Source: Octopus vulgaris
Lineage: Eukaryota
Reading direction: 5' to 3'
NCBI GenBank assembly: GCA_951406725.2
Contig: OX597827.1
Location: 5,332,001 to 5,396,000 of the forward strand
DNA length: 64,000 bases
Part shown: positions 2,421-31,001 of the stretch, one piece after another
How the letters are laid out: each line of letters starts with the position of its first letter
Position numbering within the stretch: position 1 is the first letter of the stretch
Translations under genes and position numbers: made by a program
Notes under the pieces: generated by a model
What the model saw: only the letters and a program-made list of their open reading frames with translations
Told to the model about the DNA's origin: nothing
The model's database searches: none

Positions 2421-5400
2421 GGTGGTGGTGGTGGTGTTTGTAGTGATGGTGGTAGTTGGGGCAGCAGTGGTGGCAGCAGCATTGAGGTGGTAGTGGTGGT
2501 GGTGGTTGGGGCAGCAGTGGTGGCAGCAGCATTGAGGTGGTAGTGGTGGTGGTGGTTGGGGCAGCAGTGGTGGCAGCAGCATTGAGGTGGTAGTGGTGGT
2601 GGTGGTTGGGGCAGCAGTGGTGGCAGCAGCATTGAGGTGGTAGTGGTGGTGGTGGTTGGGGCAGCAGTGGTGGCAGCAGCATTGAGGTGGTAGTGGTGGT
2701 GGTGGTTGGGGCAGCAGTGGTGGCAGCAGCATTGAGGTGGTAGTGGTGGTGGTGGTTGGGGCAGCAGTGGTGGCAGCAGCATTGAGGTGGTAGTGGTGGT
2801 GGTGGTGGTGGCAGCAGCATTGAGGTGGTAGTGGTGGTGGTGGTTGGGGCAGCAGTGGTGGCAGCAGCATTGAGGTGGTAGTGGTGGTGGTGGTTGGGGC
2901 AGCAGTGGTGGCAGCAGCATTGAGGTGGTAGTGGTGGTGGTGGTTGGGGCAGCAGTGGTGGCAGCAGCATTGAGGTGGTAGTGGTGGTGGTGGTTGGGGC
3001 AGCAGTGGTGGCAGCAGCATTGAGGTGGTAGTGGTGGTGGTGGTTGGGGCAGCAGTGGTGGCAGCAGCATTGAGGTGGTAGTGGTGGTGGTAGTTGGGGC
3101 AGCAGTGGTGGCAGCAGCATTGAGGTGGTAGTGGTGGTGGTGGTTGGGGCAGCAGTGGTTGCAGCAGCATTGAGGTGGTAGTGGTGGTGGTGGTTGGGGC
3201 AGCAGTGGTGGCAGCAGCATTGAGGTGGTAGTGGTGGTGGTGGTTGGGGCAGCAGTGGTGGCAGCAGCATTGAGGTGGTAGTGGTGGTGGTGGTTGGGGC
3301 AGCAGTGGTGGCAGCGATTGGTGGTAGTGGTGGTGGTGGTTGGGGCAGCAGGGGTGGCAGCAGCATTGAGGTGGTAGTGGTGGTGGTGGTTGGGGCAGCA
3401 GTGGTGGCAGCAGCATTGAGGTGGTAGTGGTGGTGGTGGTTGGGGCAGCAGTGGTGGCAGCAGCATTGGGTGGTAGTGGTGGTGGTGGTTGGGGCAGCAG
3501 TGGTGGCAGCAGCATTGAGGTGGTAGTGGTGGTGGTGGTTGGGGCAGCAGTGGTGGCAGCAGCATTGAGGTGGTAGTGGTGGTAGTGGTTGGGGCAGCAG
3601 TGGTGGCAGCAGCATTGAGGTGGTAGTGGTGGTAGTGGTTGGGGCAGCAGTGGTGGCAGCAGCATTGAGGTGGTAGTGGTGGTGGTGGTTGGGGCAGCAG
3701 TGGTGGCAGCAGCATTGAGGTGGTAGTGGTGGTGGTGTTTGGGGCAGCAGTGGTGGCAGCAGCATTGAGGTGGTAGTGGTGGTGGTGGTTGGGGCAGCAG
3801 TGGTGGCAGCAGCATTGAGGTGGTAGTGGTGGTGGTTGGGGCAGCAGTGGTGGCAGCAGCATTGGTGGTAGTGGTGGTGGTAGTTGGGGCAGCAGTGGTG
3901 GCAGCAGCATTGGTGGTAGTGGTGGTGGTGGTTGGGGCAGCAGTGGTGGCAGCAGCATTGAGGTGGTAGTGGTGGTAGTGGTTGGGGCAGCAGTGGTGGC
4001 AGCAGCATTGCGGTGGTAGTGGTGGTGGTGGTTGGGGCAGCAGTGGTGGCAGCAGCATTGAGGTGGTAGTGGTGGTGGTAGTAGGGGCAGCAGTGGTGGC
4101 AGCAGCATTGAGGTGGTAGTGGTGGTGGTGGTTGGGGCAGCATTGAGGTGGTAGTGGTGGTGGTTGGGGCAGCAGTGGTGGCAGCAGCATTTTGGTGGTA
4201 GTGGTGGTGGTGGTTGGGGCAGCAGTGGTGGCAGCATTTTGAGGTGGTAGTGGTGGTTGGGGCAGCAGTGGTGGCAGCAGCATTGAGGTGGTAGTGGTGG
4301 TGGTGGTTGGGGCGGCAGTGGTGGCAGCAGCATTGAGGTGGTAGTGGTGGTGGTGGTTGGGGCAGCAGTGGTGGCAGCAGCATTGAGGTGGTAGTGGTGG
4401 TGGTGGTTGGGGCAGCAGTGGTGGCAGCAGCATTGAGGTGGTAGTGGTGGTGGTAGTTGGGGCAGCAGTGGTGGCAGCAGCATTGAGGTGGTAGTGGTGG
4501 TGGTGGTTGGGGCAGCAGTGGTGGCAGCAGCATTTAGGTGGTAGTGGTGGTGGTTCGGGGCAGCAGAAGGGTGGTAGTGGTGGTGGTGGTGGTAGTGGTG
4601 GTGGTGGTTGGGGCAGCAGTGGTGGCAGCAGCATTGAGGTGGTAGTGGTGGTGGTGGTTGGGGCAGCAGTGGTGGCAGCAGCATTGAGGTGGTAGTGGTG
4701 GTGGTGGTTGGGGCAGCAGTGGTGGCAGCAGCATTGAGGTGGTAGTGGTGGTGGTTGGGGCAGCAGTGGTGGCAGCAGCATTGAGGTGGTAGTGGTGGTG
4801 GTGGTTGGGGCAGCAGTGGTGGCAGCAGCATTGAGGTGGTAGTGGTGGTGGTGGTTGGGGCAGCAGTGGTGGCAGCAGCATTGAGGTGGTAGTGGTGGTG
4901 GTTGGGGCAGCAGTGGTGGCAGCAGCATTGGTGGTAGTGGTGGTGGTGGTTGGGGCAGCAGTGGTGGCAGCAGCATTGAGGTGGTAGTGGTGGTGGTGGT
5001 TGGGGCAGCAGTGGTGGCAGCAGCATTGAGGTGGTAGTGGTGGTGGTAGTTGGGGCAGCAGTGGTGGCAGCAGCATTGAGGTGGTAGTGGTGGTGGTGGT
5101 TGGGGCAGCAGTGGTGGCAGCAGCATTGAGGTGGTAGTGGTGGTGGTGGTTGAGGCAGCAGTGGTGGTGGTTGTGGCAGCAGTGGTGGTGGTTGTGGCAG
5201 CAGTAGTGGCAGCAGCATTGAGGTGGTAGTGGTGGTGGTGGTTGGGGCAGCAGTGGTGGCAGCAGCATTGAGGTGGTAGTGGTGGTGGTGGTTGGGGCAG
5301 CAGTGGTGGCAGCAGCATTGAGGTGGTAGTGGTGGTGGTGGTTGGGGCAGCAGTGGTGGCAGCAGCATTGAGGTGGTAGTGGTGGTGGTTGGGGCAGCAG

Positions 5401-8400
5401 TGGTGGCAGCAGCATTGAGGTGGTAGTGGTGGTGGTGGTTGGGGCAGCAGTGGTGGTGGTTGGGGCAGCAGTGGTGGTGGTTGTGGCAGCAGTAGTGGCA
5501 GCAGCATTGAGGTGGTAGTGGTGGTGGTGGTTGGGGCAGCAGTGGTGGCAGCAGCATTGAGGTGGTAGTGGTGGTGGTGGTTGGGGCAGCAGTGGTGGCA
5601 GCAGCATTGGTGGTAGTGGTGGTGGTGGTTGGGGCAGCAGTGGTGGCAGCAGCATTGAGCGGGTAGTGGTGGTGGTGGTTGGGGCAGCAGTGGTGGCAGC
5701 AGCATTGAGGTGGTAGTGGTGGTGGTTGGGGCAGCAGTGGTGGCAGCAGCAGTGGTGGTAGTGGTGGTGGGTCGCGCAGCAGTGGTGGCAGCAGCATTGA
5801 GGTGGTAGTGGTGGTGGTGGTTGAGGCAGCAGTGGTGGCAGCAGCATTGGTGGTAGTGGTGGTGGTGGTTGGGGGGCAGCAGTGGTGGCAGCAGCATTGA
5901 GGTGGTAGTGGTGGTGGTAGTTGGGGCTGTTGTTGTGGTGGCAGCAGCATTGAGGTGGTAGTGGTGGTGGTGGTTGGGGCAGCAGTGGTGGCAGCAGCAT
6001 GGTGGTAGTGGTGGTGGTGGTTGGGGCAGCAGTGGTGGCAGCAGCATTGAGGTGGTAGTGGTGGTGGTTGGGGCAGCAGTGGTGGCAGCAGCATTGACGT
6101 GGTAGTGGTGGTGGTGGTTGGGGCAGCAGTGGTGGCAGCAGCATTGAGGTGGTAGTGGTGGTGGTTGGGGCAGCAGTGGTGGCAGCAGCATTGAGGTGGT
6201 AGTGGTGGTGGTGGTTGGGGCAGCAGTGGTGGCAGCAGCATTGGTGGTAGTGGTGGTGGTGGTTGGGGCAGCAGTGGTGGCAGCAGCATTTGGTGGTAGT
6301 GGTGGTGGTAGTTGGGGCAGCAGTGGTGGCAGCAGCATTGAGGTGGTAGTGGTGGTGGTGGTTGGGGCAGCAGTGGTGGCAGCAGCATTGAGGTGGTAGT
6401 GGTGGTGGTGGTTGGGGCAGCAGTGGTGGCAGCAGCTTGGTGGTAGTGGTGGTGGTGGTTGGGGCAGCAGTGGTGGCAGCAGCATTGAGGTGGTAGTGGT
6501 GGTGGTTGGGGCAGCAGTGGTGGCAGCAGCATTGAGGTGGTAGTGGTGGTGGTGGTTGGGGCAGCAGTGGTGGCAGCAGCATTGAGGTGGTAGTGGTGGT
6601 GGTGGTTGGGGCAGCAGTGGTGGCAGCAGCATTGAGGTGGTAGTGGTGGTGGTAGTTGGGGCAGCAGTGGTGGCAGCAGCATTGAGGTGGTAGTGGTGGT
6701 GGTGGTTGGGGCAGCAGTGGTGGCAGCAGCATTGAGGTGGTAGTGGTGATGGTTGGGGCAGCAGTGGTGGCAGCAGCATTGAGGTGGTAGTGGTGGTGGT
6801 GGTTGGGCGCAGCAGTGGTGGTAGTGGTGGTGGTTCGGGCAGCAGTGGTGGCAGCAGCATTGAGGTGGTGGTGGTGGTGGTTGGGGCAGCAGTGGTGGCA
6901 GCAGCATTGAGGTGGTAGTGGTGGTGGTGGTTGGGGCAGCAGTGGTGGTGGTGGTTGGGGCAGCAGTGGTGGCAGCAGCATTGAGGTGGTAGTGGTGGTG
7001 GTGGTTGGGGCAGCAGTGGTGGCAGCAGCATTGAGGTGGTAGTGGTGGTGGTGGTTGGGGCAGCAGTGGTGGCAGCAGCATTGAGGTGGTAGTGGTGGTG
7101 GTGGTTGGGGCAGCAGTGGTGGCAGCAGCATTGAGGTGGTAGTGGTGGTGGTGGTTGGGGCAGCAGTGGTGGCAGCAGCATTGAGGTGGTAGTGGTGGTG
7201 GTGGTTGGGGCAGCAGTGGTGGCAGCAGCATTGAGGTGGTAGTGGTGGTGGTGGTTGGGGCAGCAGTGGTGGCAGCAGCATTGAGGTGGTAGTGGTGGTG
7301 GTGGTTGGGGCAGCAGTGGTGGCAGCAGCATTGAGGTGGTAGTGGTGGTGGTTCGGGCAGCAGTGGTGGCAGCAGCATTGAGGTGGTAGTGGTGGTGGTG
7401 GTTGGGGCAGCAGTGGTGGCAGCAGCATTGAGGTGGTAGTGGTGGTGGTGGTTGGGGCAGCAGTGGTGGCAGCAGCATTGAGGTGGTAGTGGTGGTGGTG
7501 GTTGGGGCAGCAGTGGTGGCAGCAGCATTGAGGTGGTAGTGGTGGTGGTTGGGGCAGCAGTGGTGGTGGTTGTGGCAGCAGTGGTGGCAGCAGCATTGAG
7601 GTGGTAGTGGTGGTGGTTGGGGCAGCAGTAGTGGCAGCAGCATTGAGGTGGTAGTGGTGGTGGTTGCGGCAGCAGTGGTGGTGGTTGTGGCAGCAGTGGT
7701 GGCAGCAGCATTGAGGTGGTAGTGGTGGTGGTGGTTGGGGCAGCAGTGGTGGCAGCAGCATTGAGGTGGTAGTGGTGGTGGTGGTTGGGGCAGCAGTGGT
7801 GGCAGCAGCATTGAGGTGGTAGTGGTGGGGTGGTTGGGGCAGCAGTGGTGGCAGCAGCATTGAGGTGGTAGTGGTGGTGGTGGTTGGGGCAGCAGTGGTG
7901 GCAGCAGCATTGAGGTGGTAGTGGTGGTGGTTGGGGCAGCAGTGGTGGCAGCAGCATTGAGGTGGTAGTGGTGGTGGTTGGGGCAGCAGTGGTGGCAGCA
8001 GCATTGAGGTGGTAGTGGTGGTAGTGGTTGGGGCAGCAGTGGTGGCAGCAGCATTGAGGTGGTAGTGGTGGTGGTTGGGGCAGCAGTGGTGGCAGCAGCA
8101 TTGGAGGTGGTAGTGGTGGTGGTGGTTGGGGCAGCAGTGGTGGCAGCAGCATTGAGGTGGGAGTGGTGGTGGTTGGGGCAGCAGTGGTGGCAGCAGCATT
8201 GAGGTGGTAGTGGTGGTGGTGGTTGGGGCAGCAGTGGTGGCAGCAGCATTGAGGTGGTAGTGGTGGTGGTTCGGGCAGCAGTGGTGGCAGCAGCATTGAG
8301 GTGGTAGTGGTGGTGGTGGTTGGGGCAGCAGTGGTGGCAGCAGCATTGAGGTGGTAGTGGTGGTGGTGGTTGGGGCAGCAGTGGTGGCAGCAGCATTGAG

Positions 8401-10570
8401 GTGGTAGTGGTGATGGTTGGGGCAGCAGTGGTGGCAGCAGCATTGAGGTGGTAGTGGTGGTGGTGGTTGGGGCAGCAGTGGTGGCAGCAGCATTGAGGTG
8501 GTAGTGGTGGTGGTTCGGGCAGCAGTGGTGGCAGCAGCATTGAGGTGGTAGTGGTGGTGGTGGTTGGGGCAGCAGTGGTGGCAGCAGCATTGAGGTGGTA
8601 GTGGTGGTGGTTCGGGCAGCAGTGGTGGCAGCAGCATTGAGGTGGTAGTGGTGGTGGTGGTTGGGGCAGCAGTGGTGGCAGCAGCATTGAGGTGGTAGTG
8701 GTGGTGGTGGTTGGGGCAGCAGTGGTGGCAGCAGCATTGAGGTGGTAGTGGTGGTAGTGGTTGGGGCAGCAGTGGTGGCAGCAGCATTGAGGTGGTAGTG
8801 GTGGTGGTGGTTGGGGCAGCAGTGGTGGCAGCAGCATTGAGGTGGTAGTGGTGGTGGTGGTTGGGGCAGCAGTGGTGGCAGCAGCATTGAGGTGGTAGTG
8901 GTGGTGGTGGTTGGGGCAGCAGTGGTGGCAGCAGCATTGAGGTGGTAGTGGTGGTGGTGGTTGTGGCAGCAGTGGTGGCAGCAGCATTGAGGTGGTAGTG
9001 GTGGTGGTGGTTGGGGCAGCAGTGGTGGCAGCAGCATTGAGGTGGTAGTGGTGGTGGTGGTTGGGGCAGCAGTGGTGGCAGCAGCATTGAGGTGGCAGTG
9101 GTGGTGGTTGTGGCAGCAGTAGTGGCAGCAGCATTGAGGTGGTAGTGGTGGTGGTGGTTGGGGCAGCAGTGGTGGCAGCAGCATTGAGGTGGTAGTGGTG
9201 GTGGTGGTTGGGGCAGCAGTGGTGGCAGCAGCATTGGTGGTAGTGGTGGTGGTGGTTGGGGCAGCAGTGGTGGCAGCAGCATTGAGGTGGTAGTGGTGGT
9301 GGTGGTTGGGGCAGCAGTGGTGGCAGCAGCATTGGAGGTGGTAGTGGTGGTGGTGGTTGGGGCAGCAGTGGTGGCAGCAGCATTGAGGTGGTAGTGGTGG
9401 TGGTGGTTGGGGCAGCAGTGGTGGCAGCAGCATTGAGGTGGTAGTGGTGGTGGTGGTTGGGGCAGCAGTGGTGGCAGCAGCATTGAGGTGGTAGTGGTGG
9501 TGGTTGGGGCAGCAGTGGTGGTGGTTGTGGCAGCAGTGGTGGCAGCAGCATTGAGGTGGTAGTGGTGGTGGTTGGGGCAGCAGTGGTGGCAGCAGCATTG
9601 AGGTGGTAGTGGTGGTGGTGGTTGGGGCAGCAGTGGTGGCAGCAGCATTGAGGTGGTAGTGGTGGTGGTGGTTGGGGCAGCAGTGGTGGCAGCAGCATTG
9701 AGGTGGTAGTGGTGGTGGTTGGGGCAGCAGTGGTGGCAGCAGCATTGAGGTGGTAGTGGTGGTGGTGGTTGGGGCAGCAGTGGTGGTGGTGGTGGTGGTG
9801 GTTGTGGCAGCAGTGGTGGCAGCAGCATTGAGGTGGTAGTGGTGGTGGTTGGGGCAGCAGTGGTGGCAGCAGCATTGAGGTGGTAGTGGTGGTGGTGGTT
9901 GGGGCAGCAGTGGTGGCAGCAGCATTGAGGTGGTAGTGGTGGTGGTGGTTGGGGCAGCAGTGGTGGCAGCAGGTGGTGGTGGTTGGGGCAGCAGTGGTGG
10001 CAGCAGCATTGAGGTGGTAGTGGTGGTGGTTGGGGCAGCAGTGGTGGTGGTTGTGGCAGCAGTAGTGGCAGCAGCATTGAGGTGGTAGTGGTGGTGGTGG
10101 TTGGGGCAGCAGTGGTGGCAGCAGCATTGAGGTGGTAGTGGTGGTGGTGGTTGGGGCAGCAGTGGTGGCAGCAGCATTGAGGTGGTAGTGGTGGTGGTTG
10201 GGGCAGCAGTGGTGGCAGCAGCATTGAGGTGGTAGTGGTGGTGGTTGGGGCAGCAGTGGTGGTGGTTGTGGCAGCAGTGGTGGCAGCAGCATTGAGGTGG
10301 TAGTGGTGGTGGTGGTTGGGGCAGCAGTGGTGGCAGCAGCATTGAGGTGGTAGTGGTGGTGGTGGTTGGGGCAGCAGTGGTGGCAGCAGCATTGAGGTGG
10401 TAGTGGTGGTGGTGGTTGGGGCAGCAGTGGTGGCAGCAGCATTGAGGTGGTAGTGGTGGTGGTTGGGGCAGCAGTGGTGGCAGCAGCATTGAGGTGGTAG
10501 TGGTGGTGGTTGGTGTCATTGCGGTGGTAGTGTTGTTGATTGACAGCATTGTGGTGGTAGTGGTTAGTGG
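2421..10570. repeat. G-rich 50-bp minisatellite, roughly 160 units
   Basis: Unit GCAGCAGTGGTGGCAGCAGCATTGAGGTGGTAGTGGTGGTGGTGGTTGGG; variants are mostly GGT indels; edges degenerate. Confidence 0.98.
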
Positions 10571-16060: not shown

Positions 16061-16314
16061 GGCCATCTTTCAGTACAAGTACCATGGCAGCCACGTGTGT
16101 TTGTTTACATCTGAAGAAGAAGATCGTCACTCTCCGCAAAGTTTTTTTCTTTTTATATATGGGGGATTAGGATTAGGGTTAGAGTTAGGGTTAGGGCTTG
16201 TGTTAGGGTTAGGGTTACGGGTGGAAGAAAAGGGTTTCTTTTTTCTTCAGAAATGTAAACAAACCCACGTGGGTTTATAATTGGCAGTTATGGTACTTGT
16301 ACCGTAAGATCGCC
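16061..16314. mobile_element. MITE with long TIRs, 8-bp TSD and TTAGGG core (Merlin-like)
   Basis: TSD CAGATTTA at 16053-16060 and 16315-16322; GG..CC termini; bipartite TIRs of about 60 bp; TTAGGG repeats 16167-16221. Confidence 0.85.
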
Positions 16315-29108: not shown

Positions 29109-30635
29109 AATGCAAATAATTAGAAAATGGAGAAAACCACAGATTAACCAGATTAACCCACACATCGATTGGACCACATTTATCTCTTATTTTTTAATAC
29201 AAAGCATGACATAACAAAACAGGTGATGTAACATATCTTAGGACTGTTACTGATCAGATTGCCAAATGCAGTCTCTATAAATAAATGCAAGAATAAAATT
29301 CTTCATCTTCATAGGGCATTCGAATTAAGGCAACAGATCTTCATCAGAGTGAAAAACAAGAGCATACAGTAGAAACAAAAGGAAGAAGGAAAGGGAAAGA
29401 AATCAAGGCTTAAACAAGTAGTCTAGAAGCCCAATATGTTAAGAGCAAATAGACTACATTAAAAGTCAGTTTGGATCTTGCTTGCTTGCAATGTTACCCA
29501 GTGATACTGGTGCATAATGGGAAAATACTATGAATTAAGTTTACCTTGAAATGTTAATACGAATGGTATGAAACAAGTTTCACGTAAATTGGCAGGGTGG
29601 TTTTTGAGATATTAGAGATTTTGGAGGTACAAATATCCAAAACGGTGCATAATAGGAAGATGTTCCGAAAATAATCTTCATCCTGGAATGGAAGAAACTC
29701 TTATCTTTCTATTAGACTGAATTGACAATAAAAAAATAGGATTTTTTTTACAGTGAATGTTTCTGTATTTGCTTTTTAAACACAATATTTTAATCATTTC
29801 AAAATATTCTTAAGTGAATGTGATTTCAAAAATGTAAGTTGTTTATACAGTAAGTATTTATATTTCAGCTTTCATTAAACAGACAATATTTTAATGTTTT
29901 TTTAAGTTATTTTCAAGTAAATACCATTACAAAGATTTTTTTTGGCATATTTAGAAAATATTCTAAAGTGAAATTGACTTTAAAAATATGATAAATATTT
30001 TGTAAAAGACCTGTTCATAACCTCGGTAAGAAATAGGGTTTTCCATAGGGCTTTTTTGAGTGCGTTCAACGTATTTGGCTGCTATTTCTAACACGCCCTG
30101 CGACCATGTAACAGCTATTTGTGATAGAGGACACAAAATACCTGTTACGTGGTAGCAGGGCATGCAAGAAATAGCAGCCTAATCTTTCTTTTTCTGGGGA
30201 AAGGAACCATTTACTTGTGATTTCGATGTCACATTTATTGAACCCTTGCAAAATAACCTGGAAAAGAAAAAACCCACAAAACAAAACTCCATTGCAGGAA
30301 AACTCAGAGTTTCCCAGTGATCCAACAAGTCATGAGTAGTCCTGGCTCTGTGAATGAAGTTATATTTATAATGTTTTATTTATTAACTAGCTGGCCCTGT
30401 GCTGTCAAAAATGACAGATAATTTTAGTATTTTATATATAAATATGGATGGTAAATCAAATTAATACACTTGTCAATATTCACATACATTCACATACTTC
30501 CTTTGCACAAGCACAAACATACACACACAGAGTTGAAACGTTGTTTGACTTTCTTTTTCAGCGTTTACCAGTTTACCATTACCCCTTCCTTTGTTATTCA
30601 TCTATCACACCTTCCTTTCTCATTCATATGCCCAC

Positions 30636-30949
30636 GGGCATATGGCATAGTGGTTAAGAGCGCGGGCTACTAACCCCAAGATTCCGAGTTCGATTCCAAG
30701 TTGTGACCTGAACAATAATAATAATAACTATAATAATAATAATAATAATAATAACAATAATAATAATAACAATAACATCGAAGAATACCTTAGGAATGAG
30801 AACCCAGGTTCGAAATTTCCCCAAGACACCTGATGATGGCTGGAGGGTATATCAGCCGAAATGTTGTGCTAACAACAAACAAGATGAGGACAAATATCCA
30901 TCGAATGTAAATAATGTACATAATTCCTCATCTCTTAAATATAGAACTG
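30636..30949 (+). mobile_element. tRNA-headed element carrying a hammerhead motif
   Basis: A box TGGCATAGTGG 30643-30653, B box GAGTTCGATTC 30686-30696, (AAT)n spacer, hammerhead at 30825-30870. Confidence 0.75.
30825..30870 (+). ncRNA. Minimal type I hammerhead ribozyme motif
   Basis: GACAC-CTGATGA-T-GGCTG gagggtatat CAGCC-GAAA-T-GTT-GTGCT. Confidence 0.7.
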
Positions 30950-31001
30950 TATGAGTAATGACGATGATGATGATGATTATGATTGTGGTGGTGATGTAGT
31001 T

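Follow-up and report, generated by a model that had tools for sequence, protein, structure and literature searches.

Poseidon_Ac (PAc), a Penelope-like element (PLE) of the anole, is described as a single frame of reverse transcriptase (RT) and C-terminal GIY-YIG without the CX2-5CxxC linker, with a minimal hammerhead ribozyme overlapping the ORF start, a tail of ~30 nt, inverted 5' arms and partial tandems (PMC11167929, PMC8557442). Minimal PLE hammerheads are reported to cleave weakly and as dimers, for which their palindromic stem III is suited (PMC4209133), and such ribozymes can also cleave with protein help (PMC11167929). The octopus family analysed here resembles PAc in all of these structural features but differs from it in that its pseudo-LTR contains, 25 nt past the stop codon, a tRNA-like module with A and B boxes and in that most copies consist of the repeat alone, from the A/B-box module onward.

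Other described repeats share parts of this organization. The short, non-coding SM-alpha and Sj-alpha repeats of Schistosoma likewise combine a Pol III-type promoter with a type I hammerhead; the available part of their description reports cleaving tandems of SM-alpha and names no partner (PMC6765202), whereas our family has a known partner with an identical type of head, few tandems and a ribozyme of the minimal PLE form. Animal non-LTR retrozymes are also non-coding, pLTR-derived, equipped with a type I hammerhead and likely mobilised by PLEs, and they form tandem hammerhead units and circular RNAs, with a tRNA-like promoter unmentioned in the accessible portions of these sources (PMC7229834; bioRxiv 10.64898/2026.07.22.740005); our family, in contrast, is dispersed and mostly single or head-to-head. 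The TRIMp3 elements Cassandra, Helenus and Ajax resemble it in bearing a small-RNA-derived Pol III promoter in the terminal repeat, but they are non-autonomous LTR elements whose autonomous partners are argued to use Pol II and to be unlikely to share the repeat (PMC10886601), whereas our autonomous element shares the whole repeat.

We analysed a window of 64,000 nt of Octopus vulgaris DNA (G000:C14:5332001-5396000, from a genome of 2.80 Gb; positions are counted from its first letter), in which a preliminary description made from the letters had proposed a tRNA-headed, self-cleaving, non-autonomous element. SINEs are normally paired with LINEs, with which they have only the 3' end in common. 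Octopus SINEs named OK, OR1 and OR2 were reportedly described by Ohshima and Okada in 1994 as high-copy repeats of a few hundred bases derived from tRNA-Lys and tRNA-Arg. The head in our window is Arg-like, and the short form of our family may be OR1 or OR2, described earlier without its ribozyme or PLE link. Full-text literature searches, with subscription papers, Repbase, Dfam and SINEBase outside their scope, yielded neither a PLE with a tRNA-like promoter in its pseudo-LTR nor a SINE assigned a PLE partner. The word "ribozyme" is absent from the available text of a 2026 O. vulgaris repeat paper, and that of a giant squid paper gives 235 hammerhead matches with no context. Consensus sequences of our family may already be part of an octopus repeat library (PMC13282606).

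Results

The window element is a solo pseudo-LTR with a tRNA-like head

The segment from 30629 to 30952 is a pseudo-LTR of a Penelope/Poseidon-type PLE (Table 1), alignable end to end with a copy at an ORF end (L080) and with two copies at ORF starts (L211 and L420). The preliminary description had given the element as 30528 to 30949; its 3' end holds, at 30949-30952, but the 5' start lies at ~30629 and not at 30528. The letters reported for the head are all in the sequence, with an A box TGGCATAGTGG at 30643-30653, the loop CTACTAA at 30667-30673 and a B box GTTCGATTC from 30688, 45 nt past the A box start, and they are followed by the reported (AAT)n spacer at 30714-30775 and by the terminal hairpin with its arms GATGAGGA (30883-30890) and TCCTCATC (30925-30932). 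Among the host tRNAs sampled, which covered some isotypes, the head gave its best local scores, 50.5, with Arg(TCT) and Arg(TCG), compared with shuffle maxima of 28.5-36.5. Rfam, at gathering and E-value thresholds, and ARAGORN called neither the head nor the ribozyme, here or on 10 intact-ribozyme loci.

Table 1. Features of the element and its neighbour in the window
Feature	Positions	Strand	Basis
Complete element, the SINE-like short form: a tailed solo pseudo-LTR from a Penelope/Poseidon-type PLE	30629..30952	+	End-to-end alignment with dispersed copies
5' hairpin TGCCC-AC-GGGCA; main 5' end of the family, probable Pol III start region	30629..30640	+	53/130 segment starts; hairpin folded in copy L235
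tRNA-like head, nearest tRNA-Arg among sampled host tRNAs	30636..30712	+	Local alignment scores
A box; one CpG-type change at 30647 in window copy	30643..30653	+	Letters and family comparison
B box, same as the family's commonest letters	30688..30697	+	Family comparison
(AAT)n run, variable in length, separating head from ORF start	30713..30775	+	Repeat call and alignment
First 51 codons of PLE RT/GIY-YIG frame	30796..30948	+	L204, L207, L210, L211 and L217 read on into PLE N-terminal domain
Minimal type I hammerhead within ORF start, decayed in window copy	30825..30870	+	Family letters, folding
Hammerhead parts: stem I; core; extra nucleotide; stem II; GAAA	30825-29/30866-70; 30830-36; 30837; 30838-43/30852-57; 30858-61
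GATGAGGA/TCCTCATC stem-loop	30883..30932	+	Tail-less 3' end (30912-30925, mode 30924) just ahead of 3' arm
PLE "tail", ~28-nt extension at only one end of head-to-head insertions	30925..30952	+	3' end clusters
Unrelated Helitron-like repeat holding GAAACGTT: CTAG 30387-90, hairpin 30402-17	30387..30630	-	Repeat copies

The window copy is a single tailed, decayed insertion product adjoining a Helitron-like repeat, with no clear target duplication. Compared with the commonest letters of the family, taken from copies not selected on the part compared, it shows 3 differences in 88 positions and 6 in 177, at 30647 (A box), 30701, 30702, 30783, 30837, 30862 (stem III), 30869 (stem I), 30900 and 30903. 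A second half-motif, GAAACGTT at 30535, had been counted as part of the element, but it sits in the neighbouring repeat at 30387-30630, which resembles a Helitron in its end signatures. Nor is it half of a dimeric ribozyme: a script located the site in 5 of 11 copies of that repeat, all five of which read GAAACGCTG, and neither in these copies nor at 30535 in the window do the 80 nt upstream of the site contain a CTGANGA. The neighbouring repeat is abundant (1498 first-look candidates) and non-coding, with a 16-nt hairpin 11 nt inside its CTAG end (copies L040, L054 and L132-L142), and the ~40 nt that trail it in other copies are absent after the element in the window. Elsewhere, the window holds an 8-kb array (2440-10510) in which a G-rich unit of 50 nt is repeated ~160 times and the GC skew is extreme, and an internal stretch (16167-16222) of about nine TTAGGG repeats in degenerate form.

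The repeat belongs to an autonomous PLE

Two loci selected by the head carried a decayed RT/GIY-YIG frame immediately upstream of it. Among 30 loci selected by the ORF, which include 7 near-identical duplicates on one contig, BLAST found the head ~25 nt after the ORF stop in 27, with head remnants visible in the other 3, and the tail followed the head in 24. A further 30 junction loci ran from the tail straight into the ORF; in the window copy, the frame meets a stop at 30952-30954, in the flank. The order in the autonomous element is ORF stop, ~25 nt, tRNA-like head, (AAT)n, ATG, hammerhead, tail and remaining ORF. In correction of the preliminary description, head and ribozyme alike come with the terminal repeat of the autonomous PLE itself, and the PLE reading frame begins with the 3' half. 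In 80 related loci of other organisms, 39 of them with at least 400 nt behind the C-terminus, we found no A/B pair behind the ORF; the single pair detected lay 5' of the ORF.

Tiling of natural copies gave a frame of ~820 codons, and the overlapping copies L204, L212, L175 and L177 align along proteins P0009 and P0022. No intact autonomous copy was found in 62 loci, the longest open stretch being 465 codons. RVT_1 scored above its cut-off for L212 and L175, and the decayed L177 gave no Pfam GIY-YIG match. The protein has the RT followed by a C-terminal GIY-YIG in one frame, with DKG, YVDD and a CxC inside the GIY-YIG core; the latter shows the YSIPCSCG core and the VDEH and ADHV histidines and lacks the Zn-finger linker that is present in the control L143. 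A CxC in the core without this linker defines Penelope/Poseidon (PMC8557442). The protein is 55% identical to an 847-aa protein and 35% identical to an Anolis protein of 836 aa, which agrees with the description of PAc (PMC11167929). In a quick tree, whose one row with a likely clade label is that of Anolis, it was sister to P0009 (support 100) and far from Neptune-like octopus families. Searches for the DNA of P0009, its closest protein relative, did not find it, and a search of viral contigs found nothing.

The Neptune-like GIY-YIG families, whose 781-aa frames topped the Pfam search, were rejected as partner, with no tail match in 30 + 20 loci and a hammerhead-like motif of their own that differs. 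One of these families is young, with 16 of the 150 scored GIY-YIG matches in 781-aa open frames (L143:1745-4087); it has a separate 359-aa frame upstream of the RT, and its repeat carries a hammerhead-like motif with a U3-A8 core swap (L143:279 and 5066).

The element peptide matches gene models of Octopus sinensis and O. bimaculoides at 81-83%. We also observed the 3' half of the element as the first exon of predicted host genes in both species (P0003 and P0005, respectively), the products being an uncharacterised protein and dystrobrevin beta. Both leave the element near window position 30903-30907, suggesting a splice donor.

The hammerhead is decayed in the window copy and retained in the family

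The proposed hammerhead letters (CTGATGA at 30830-30836, GGCTG/CAGCC and GAAA at 30858-30861) were confirmed, with a predicted cut after 30865, as were the two defects noted in this copy, a CpG decay at 30862 (T, where C is commonest at 70%) and a stem I mismatch at 30869 (C, where T is commonest at 83%). A third change in the ribozyme lies at 30837, in addition to the one in the A box at 30647. The palindromic stem III reads ACGT in the family and ATGT in the window copy. The family form has the CUGANGA/GAAA core, the extra nucleotide before stem II and the palindromic, loop-less stem III of the minimal type I hammerhead; its stem I of 5 bp falls within the 4-5 bp of that definition (PMC4209133), and its stem II has 6 bp as against 7-8 bp described for Schistosoma. 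Stems I and II constitute the minimum-energy fold in copy L235 (-12.7 kcal/mol) but not in the window copy, where they reach -8.4 against a minimum of -10.5. The window-copy hammerhead is likely dead. In an unconstrained co-fold of two monomers, the double-hammerhead pairing did not form, which counts neither for nor against such pairing.

A relaxed scan for minimal hammerheads gave 8 matches in 864 kb, including the window site, compared with 0, 1 and 0 in three shuffles, and an exact intact 46-nt version of the ribozyme occurred 277 times, its reversed control 0 times. All core letters were kept in 19 of 68 unselected copies, the window copy not being among them. Other hammerhead-like motifs in the random sample lie at L034:969 and 136, L409:5607, L045:22, L059:1658 and L054:775; one motif in that sample is present as three near-identical copies, which points to further ribozyme-bearing repeat families.

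The free position N7 is the sole frequent non-CpG variant within the hammerhead (T 71%, A 28%), and the ribozyme-dictated peptide TPDxG...PKRCV is retained in P0009, which is 55% identical over the RT. Because of this variation pattern and the peptide kept in P0009, the motif was likely under selection in active lineages. Covariation beyond N7 was uninformative because the copies are decayed. The hammerhead is inherited from the PLE, and its predicted cleavage depends on dimer formation or on assistance from protein; for copying, it is likely dispensable, and the templates do not seem to arise from its cleavage.

Copies carry the insertion signature of PLEs

We counted 14 insertion sites in 800 kb (80 evenly chosen 10-kb stretches), giving an estimate of ~49,000 insertions per genome, with a Poisson range of roughly 27,000-82,000. 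A search with the 51-aa peptide returned 37,762 first-look candidates, and the 150 of them that were scored were all short copies. Copies lie 5.8-7.3% off the commonest letters. With duplicate loci and the window's own locus left out before counting, the 3' part was present at 8 of 8 random head-bearing sites, the head in 21 of 27 tail-selected loci and tail sequence in 25 of 29 head-selected loci (two of them ~1 kb off). The head, (AAT)n and minimal hammerhead are therefore real and linked in other copies, as the preliminary description had proposed, and they do not make up a stand-alone retrozyme.

Across 73 loci chosen independently of the head, 3' ends clustered ~30 nt apart, at 30912-30925 (49 ends) and 30947-30952 (69 ends). 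About half of the loci held head-to-head pairs (38 in the 73), of which 34 combined one tailed and one tail-less arm, none had two tails and 4 had none. This pattern of tail and inverted copies matches that described for PLEs (PMC8557442), and two internal RT start sites explain it for anole Poseidon in vitro (PMC11167929). Shared flanking words of 7-16 nt, which we read as target duplications, were present at ~7 of 13 simple copies. The tail, inverted arms and target duplications bear out mobilisation by Penelope machinery. The family thus displays the PLE traits of a pseudo-LTR with a minimal hammerhead, a tail at one end, an inverted 5' copy and partial tandems, along with the SINE traits of a 5' A/B-box head, a 3' part common to the autonomous partner, high copy number and variable target duplications; unusually for a tRNA-SINE, the head too is common to the partner.

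5' ends pile up at the start of the head

We mapped the 5' ends of 130 segments. At 30625-30640 there were 53 (3.3 per nt), compared with 0.16-0.31 per nt elsewhere in the repeat; the interior of the head had 14 (0.19 per nt), the AAT run 25 and the part further 3' 31, and 7 segments began upstream, in >2.1 kb of PLE body. Of the 53 starts, 25 are at 30629, the first base of the query, and the 30-nt upstream check is blind to extensions of less than ~9 nt. This pile-up at the head start suggests that Pol III transcripts served as SINE-like templates. Consistent with this, ORF fragments are joined straight to the head at 30630-31 in L210, L221, L224 and L227, joins that would be expected if RT had come to the end of an RNA and jumped. 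L210, L221, L224, L227, L414 and L432 are internally deleted PLEs with the first few hundred ORF bases joined to the head, and template jumps or circular templates could explain them. We favor, as the probable reading, that the head of this Penelope/Poseidon-type terminal repeat acts as an internal Pol III promoter, the short transcripts being recopied by the element's own RT/GIY-YIG protein; a SINE-like Pol III amplification of the repeat is, in our estimate, just as probable.

Ordinary 5' truncation of PLE insertions copied from a Pol II transcript, with RT stalling or snapping back at the small GC hairpin and the head a passenger left by an old SINE in the 3' UTR, would be an unlikely alternative. 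Heavy 5' truncation is typical of PLEs (PMC8557442), a GC hairpin able to stall RT lies at the site of the pile-up, and many inverted junctions are centred on this TGCCC-AC-GGGCA hairpin. Besides the 7 segments above, 3 of 8 random head-bearing sites continue upstream into the PLE body, as do the ORF-leading repeats L222 and L440 upstream of their heads, and some templates must thus have begun further 5'. In three RNA runs on L080, possibly from species other than that of the window genome, 6252-9006 reads fell about equally in both orientations, 75-80% of them continued into unlike sequence, and no site was found where many molecules start or end. However, of the 60 segments extending as far as the head start, 53 end at that point, whereas the longer stem II and the 8-bp 3' hairpin show no such stop, and the family's commonest letters preserve both the A box and the B box. 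By established promoter geometry, the stop coincides with the expected start of transcription from a tRNA-type promoter, 7 nt ahead of the tRNA +1 equivalent. These observations speak against truncation.

Retrozyme and independent SINE origins are poorly supported

The retrozyme reading of the preliminary description, in which units in tandem would cleave themselves as dimers, form circles and return to the genome from the circular RNA, is very improbable for this family. The palindromic stem III would suit dimers (PMC4209133), retrozymes have been proposed to derive from pLTRs (bioRxiv 10.64898/2026.07.22.740005), and one locus on C30 (L004) is a head-to-tail array of six headless units of ~188 nt. 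But the expected tandem arrangement was confined to this 1 array in 73 loci, the window copy being single, and pairs are otherwise head-to-head, so that no cis dimer is possible. There is also no sharp pile-up of ends at the cut, where the rise is modest: 5' ends per 10 nt number 16, 14 and 12 downstream of it, 4, 4, 2 and 5 just upstream and 10, 5, 10 and 7 further up, and two of the 4 ends at 30866 are small deletions. Moreover, PAc insertion in vitro needs no cleavage (PMC11167929). With 150-nt cDNA reads, circles and tandem DNA are indistinguishable. At L004:521-1670 (G000:C30), each of the six units contains a hammerhead, and this is the sole retrozyme-like locus that we saw.

Equally remote is an independent tRNA-SINE that took the PLE 3' end as its tail, with headed ORF copies as secondary template-jump chimeras: template-jump products are common, and 4 of 29 head-selected loci (L073, L083, L085 and L093) have the head and an (AAT)n-like run without the PLE part, as an older SINE would, but nearly all 30 ORF-selected loci share one ORF-to-head junction sequence, where template jumps would leave a variety of them, and a version with a headless 3' UTR was not seen. 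These four loci may be relics of a donor SINE or copies primed inside the repeat, and the independent-SINE scenario may describe the first origin of the arrangement.

Sparse T4 runs and possible Pol III transcription of the whole element

A bolder and rather doubtful extension is that the head is the promoter of the whole autonomous element, with Pol III starting in one pseudo-LTR, crossing the ORF of ~820 codons and continuing as far as the next tail. A conserved T4 terminator is absent from the sense strand of the unit, with no run of more than 3 commonest-T columns over 403 + 2131 columns, and copies hold 0.36-0.70 T4 per kb where 2.0-2.8 are expected from base content, A4 runs in the body being as expected. 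By comparison, 14 other octopus retroelement frames contain 45 T4 runs in 14.9 kb (2 of them in the out-of-frame control L179, whose codon nulls were left out), 57 of 58 related ORFs have at least one T4 run, and 35 of 39 relatives have a T4 within 400 nt behind the ORF. Against this, synonymous-codon nulls on single natural pieces gave P values from 0.03 to 0.6, the relative L293 lacks T4 over ~2.1 kb of ORF without having a head, and two ORF-leading repeats start upstream of the head. We thus regard the missing T4 runs as suggestive only. If the extension were true, a Pol III promoter would here drive a protein-coding retrotransposon whose RNA is translated uncapped and which breeds its own SINE from its terminal repeat. 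In L293:2500-4900, a related PLE of another organism, the 3' UTR is rich in T, and a hammerhead-like motif lies near 4826.

Discussion

We propose a model in which a tRNA-Arg-like module with an (AAT)n tail came into the 3' UTR of a Poseidon-type PLE, where the pseudo-LTR structure would place it just upstream of the next ORF. PLE promoters are described as lying just upstream of the ORF (PMC6765202). Pol III would start at ~30629-30636 and read through the repeat, meeting no T4 run. The PLE protein would then bind the 3' part and nick AT-rich DNA, and reverse transcription would start at one of two internal sites, ~30924 or 30950, as in anole Poseidon in vitro. At the 5' end of the RNA, the cDNA would join the target, fold back on the GCCC-AC-GGGC hairpin or jump template, yielding simple, inverted or internally deleted copies, respectively. 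A full short copy would keep the promoter and could seed more, and short copies would therefore outnumber ORF-bearing ones. Since such Pol III transcripts would hold all that the PLE protein needs at the 3' side and would regenerate the promoter, the repeat alone could thereby have been amplified as a SINE.

The finding presents a SINE-like family with an estimated 49,000 insertions that is physically joined to a PLE holding the SINE promoter in its own terminal repeat. This offers a concrete route for the birth of a SINE from a PLE and suggests seeking a PLE partner for SM-alpha. It also makes two questions about PLEs testable, namely which promoter the pseudo-LTR uses and what can be read about the reaction from the tail and inverted arms. 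The family supplies a natural data set for them, with dated insertions in the thousands that have a single defined 5' end and two start sites. Finally, about every second sampled locus has built-in inverted repeats; within host transcripts, these would pair into double-stranded RNA, and they may be linked to octopus RNA editing.
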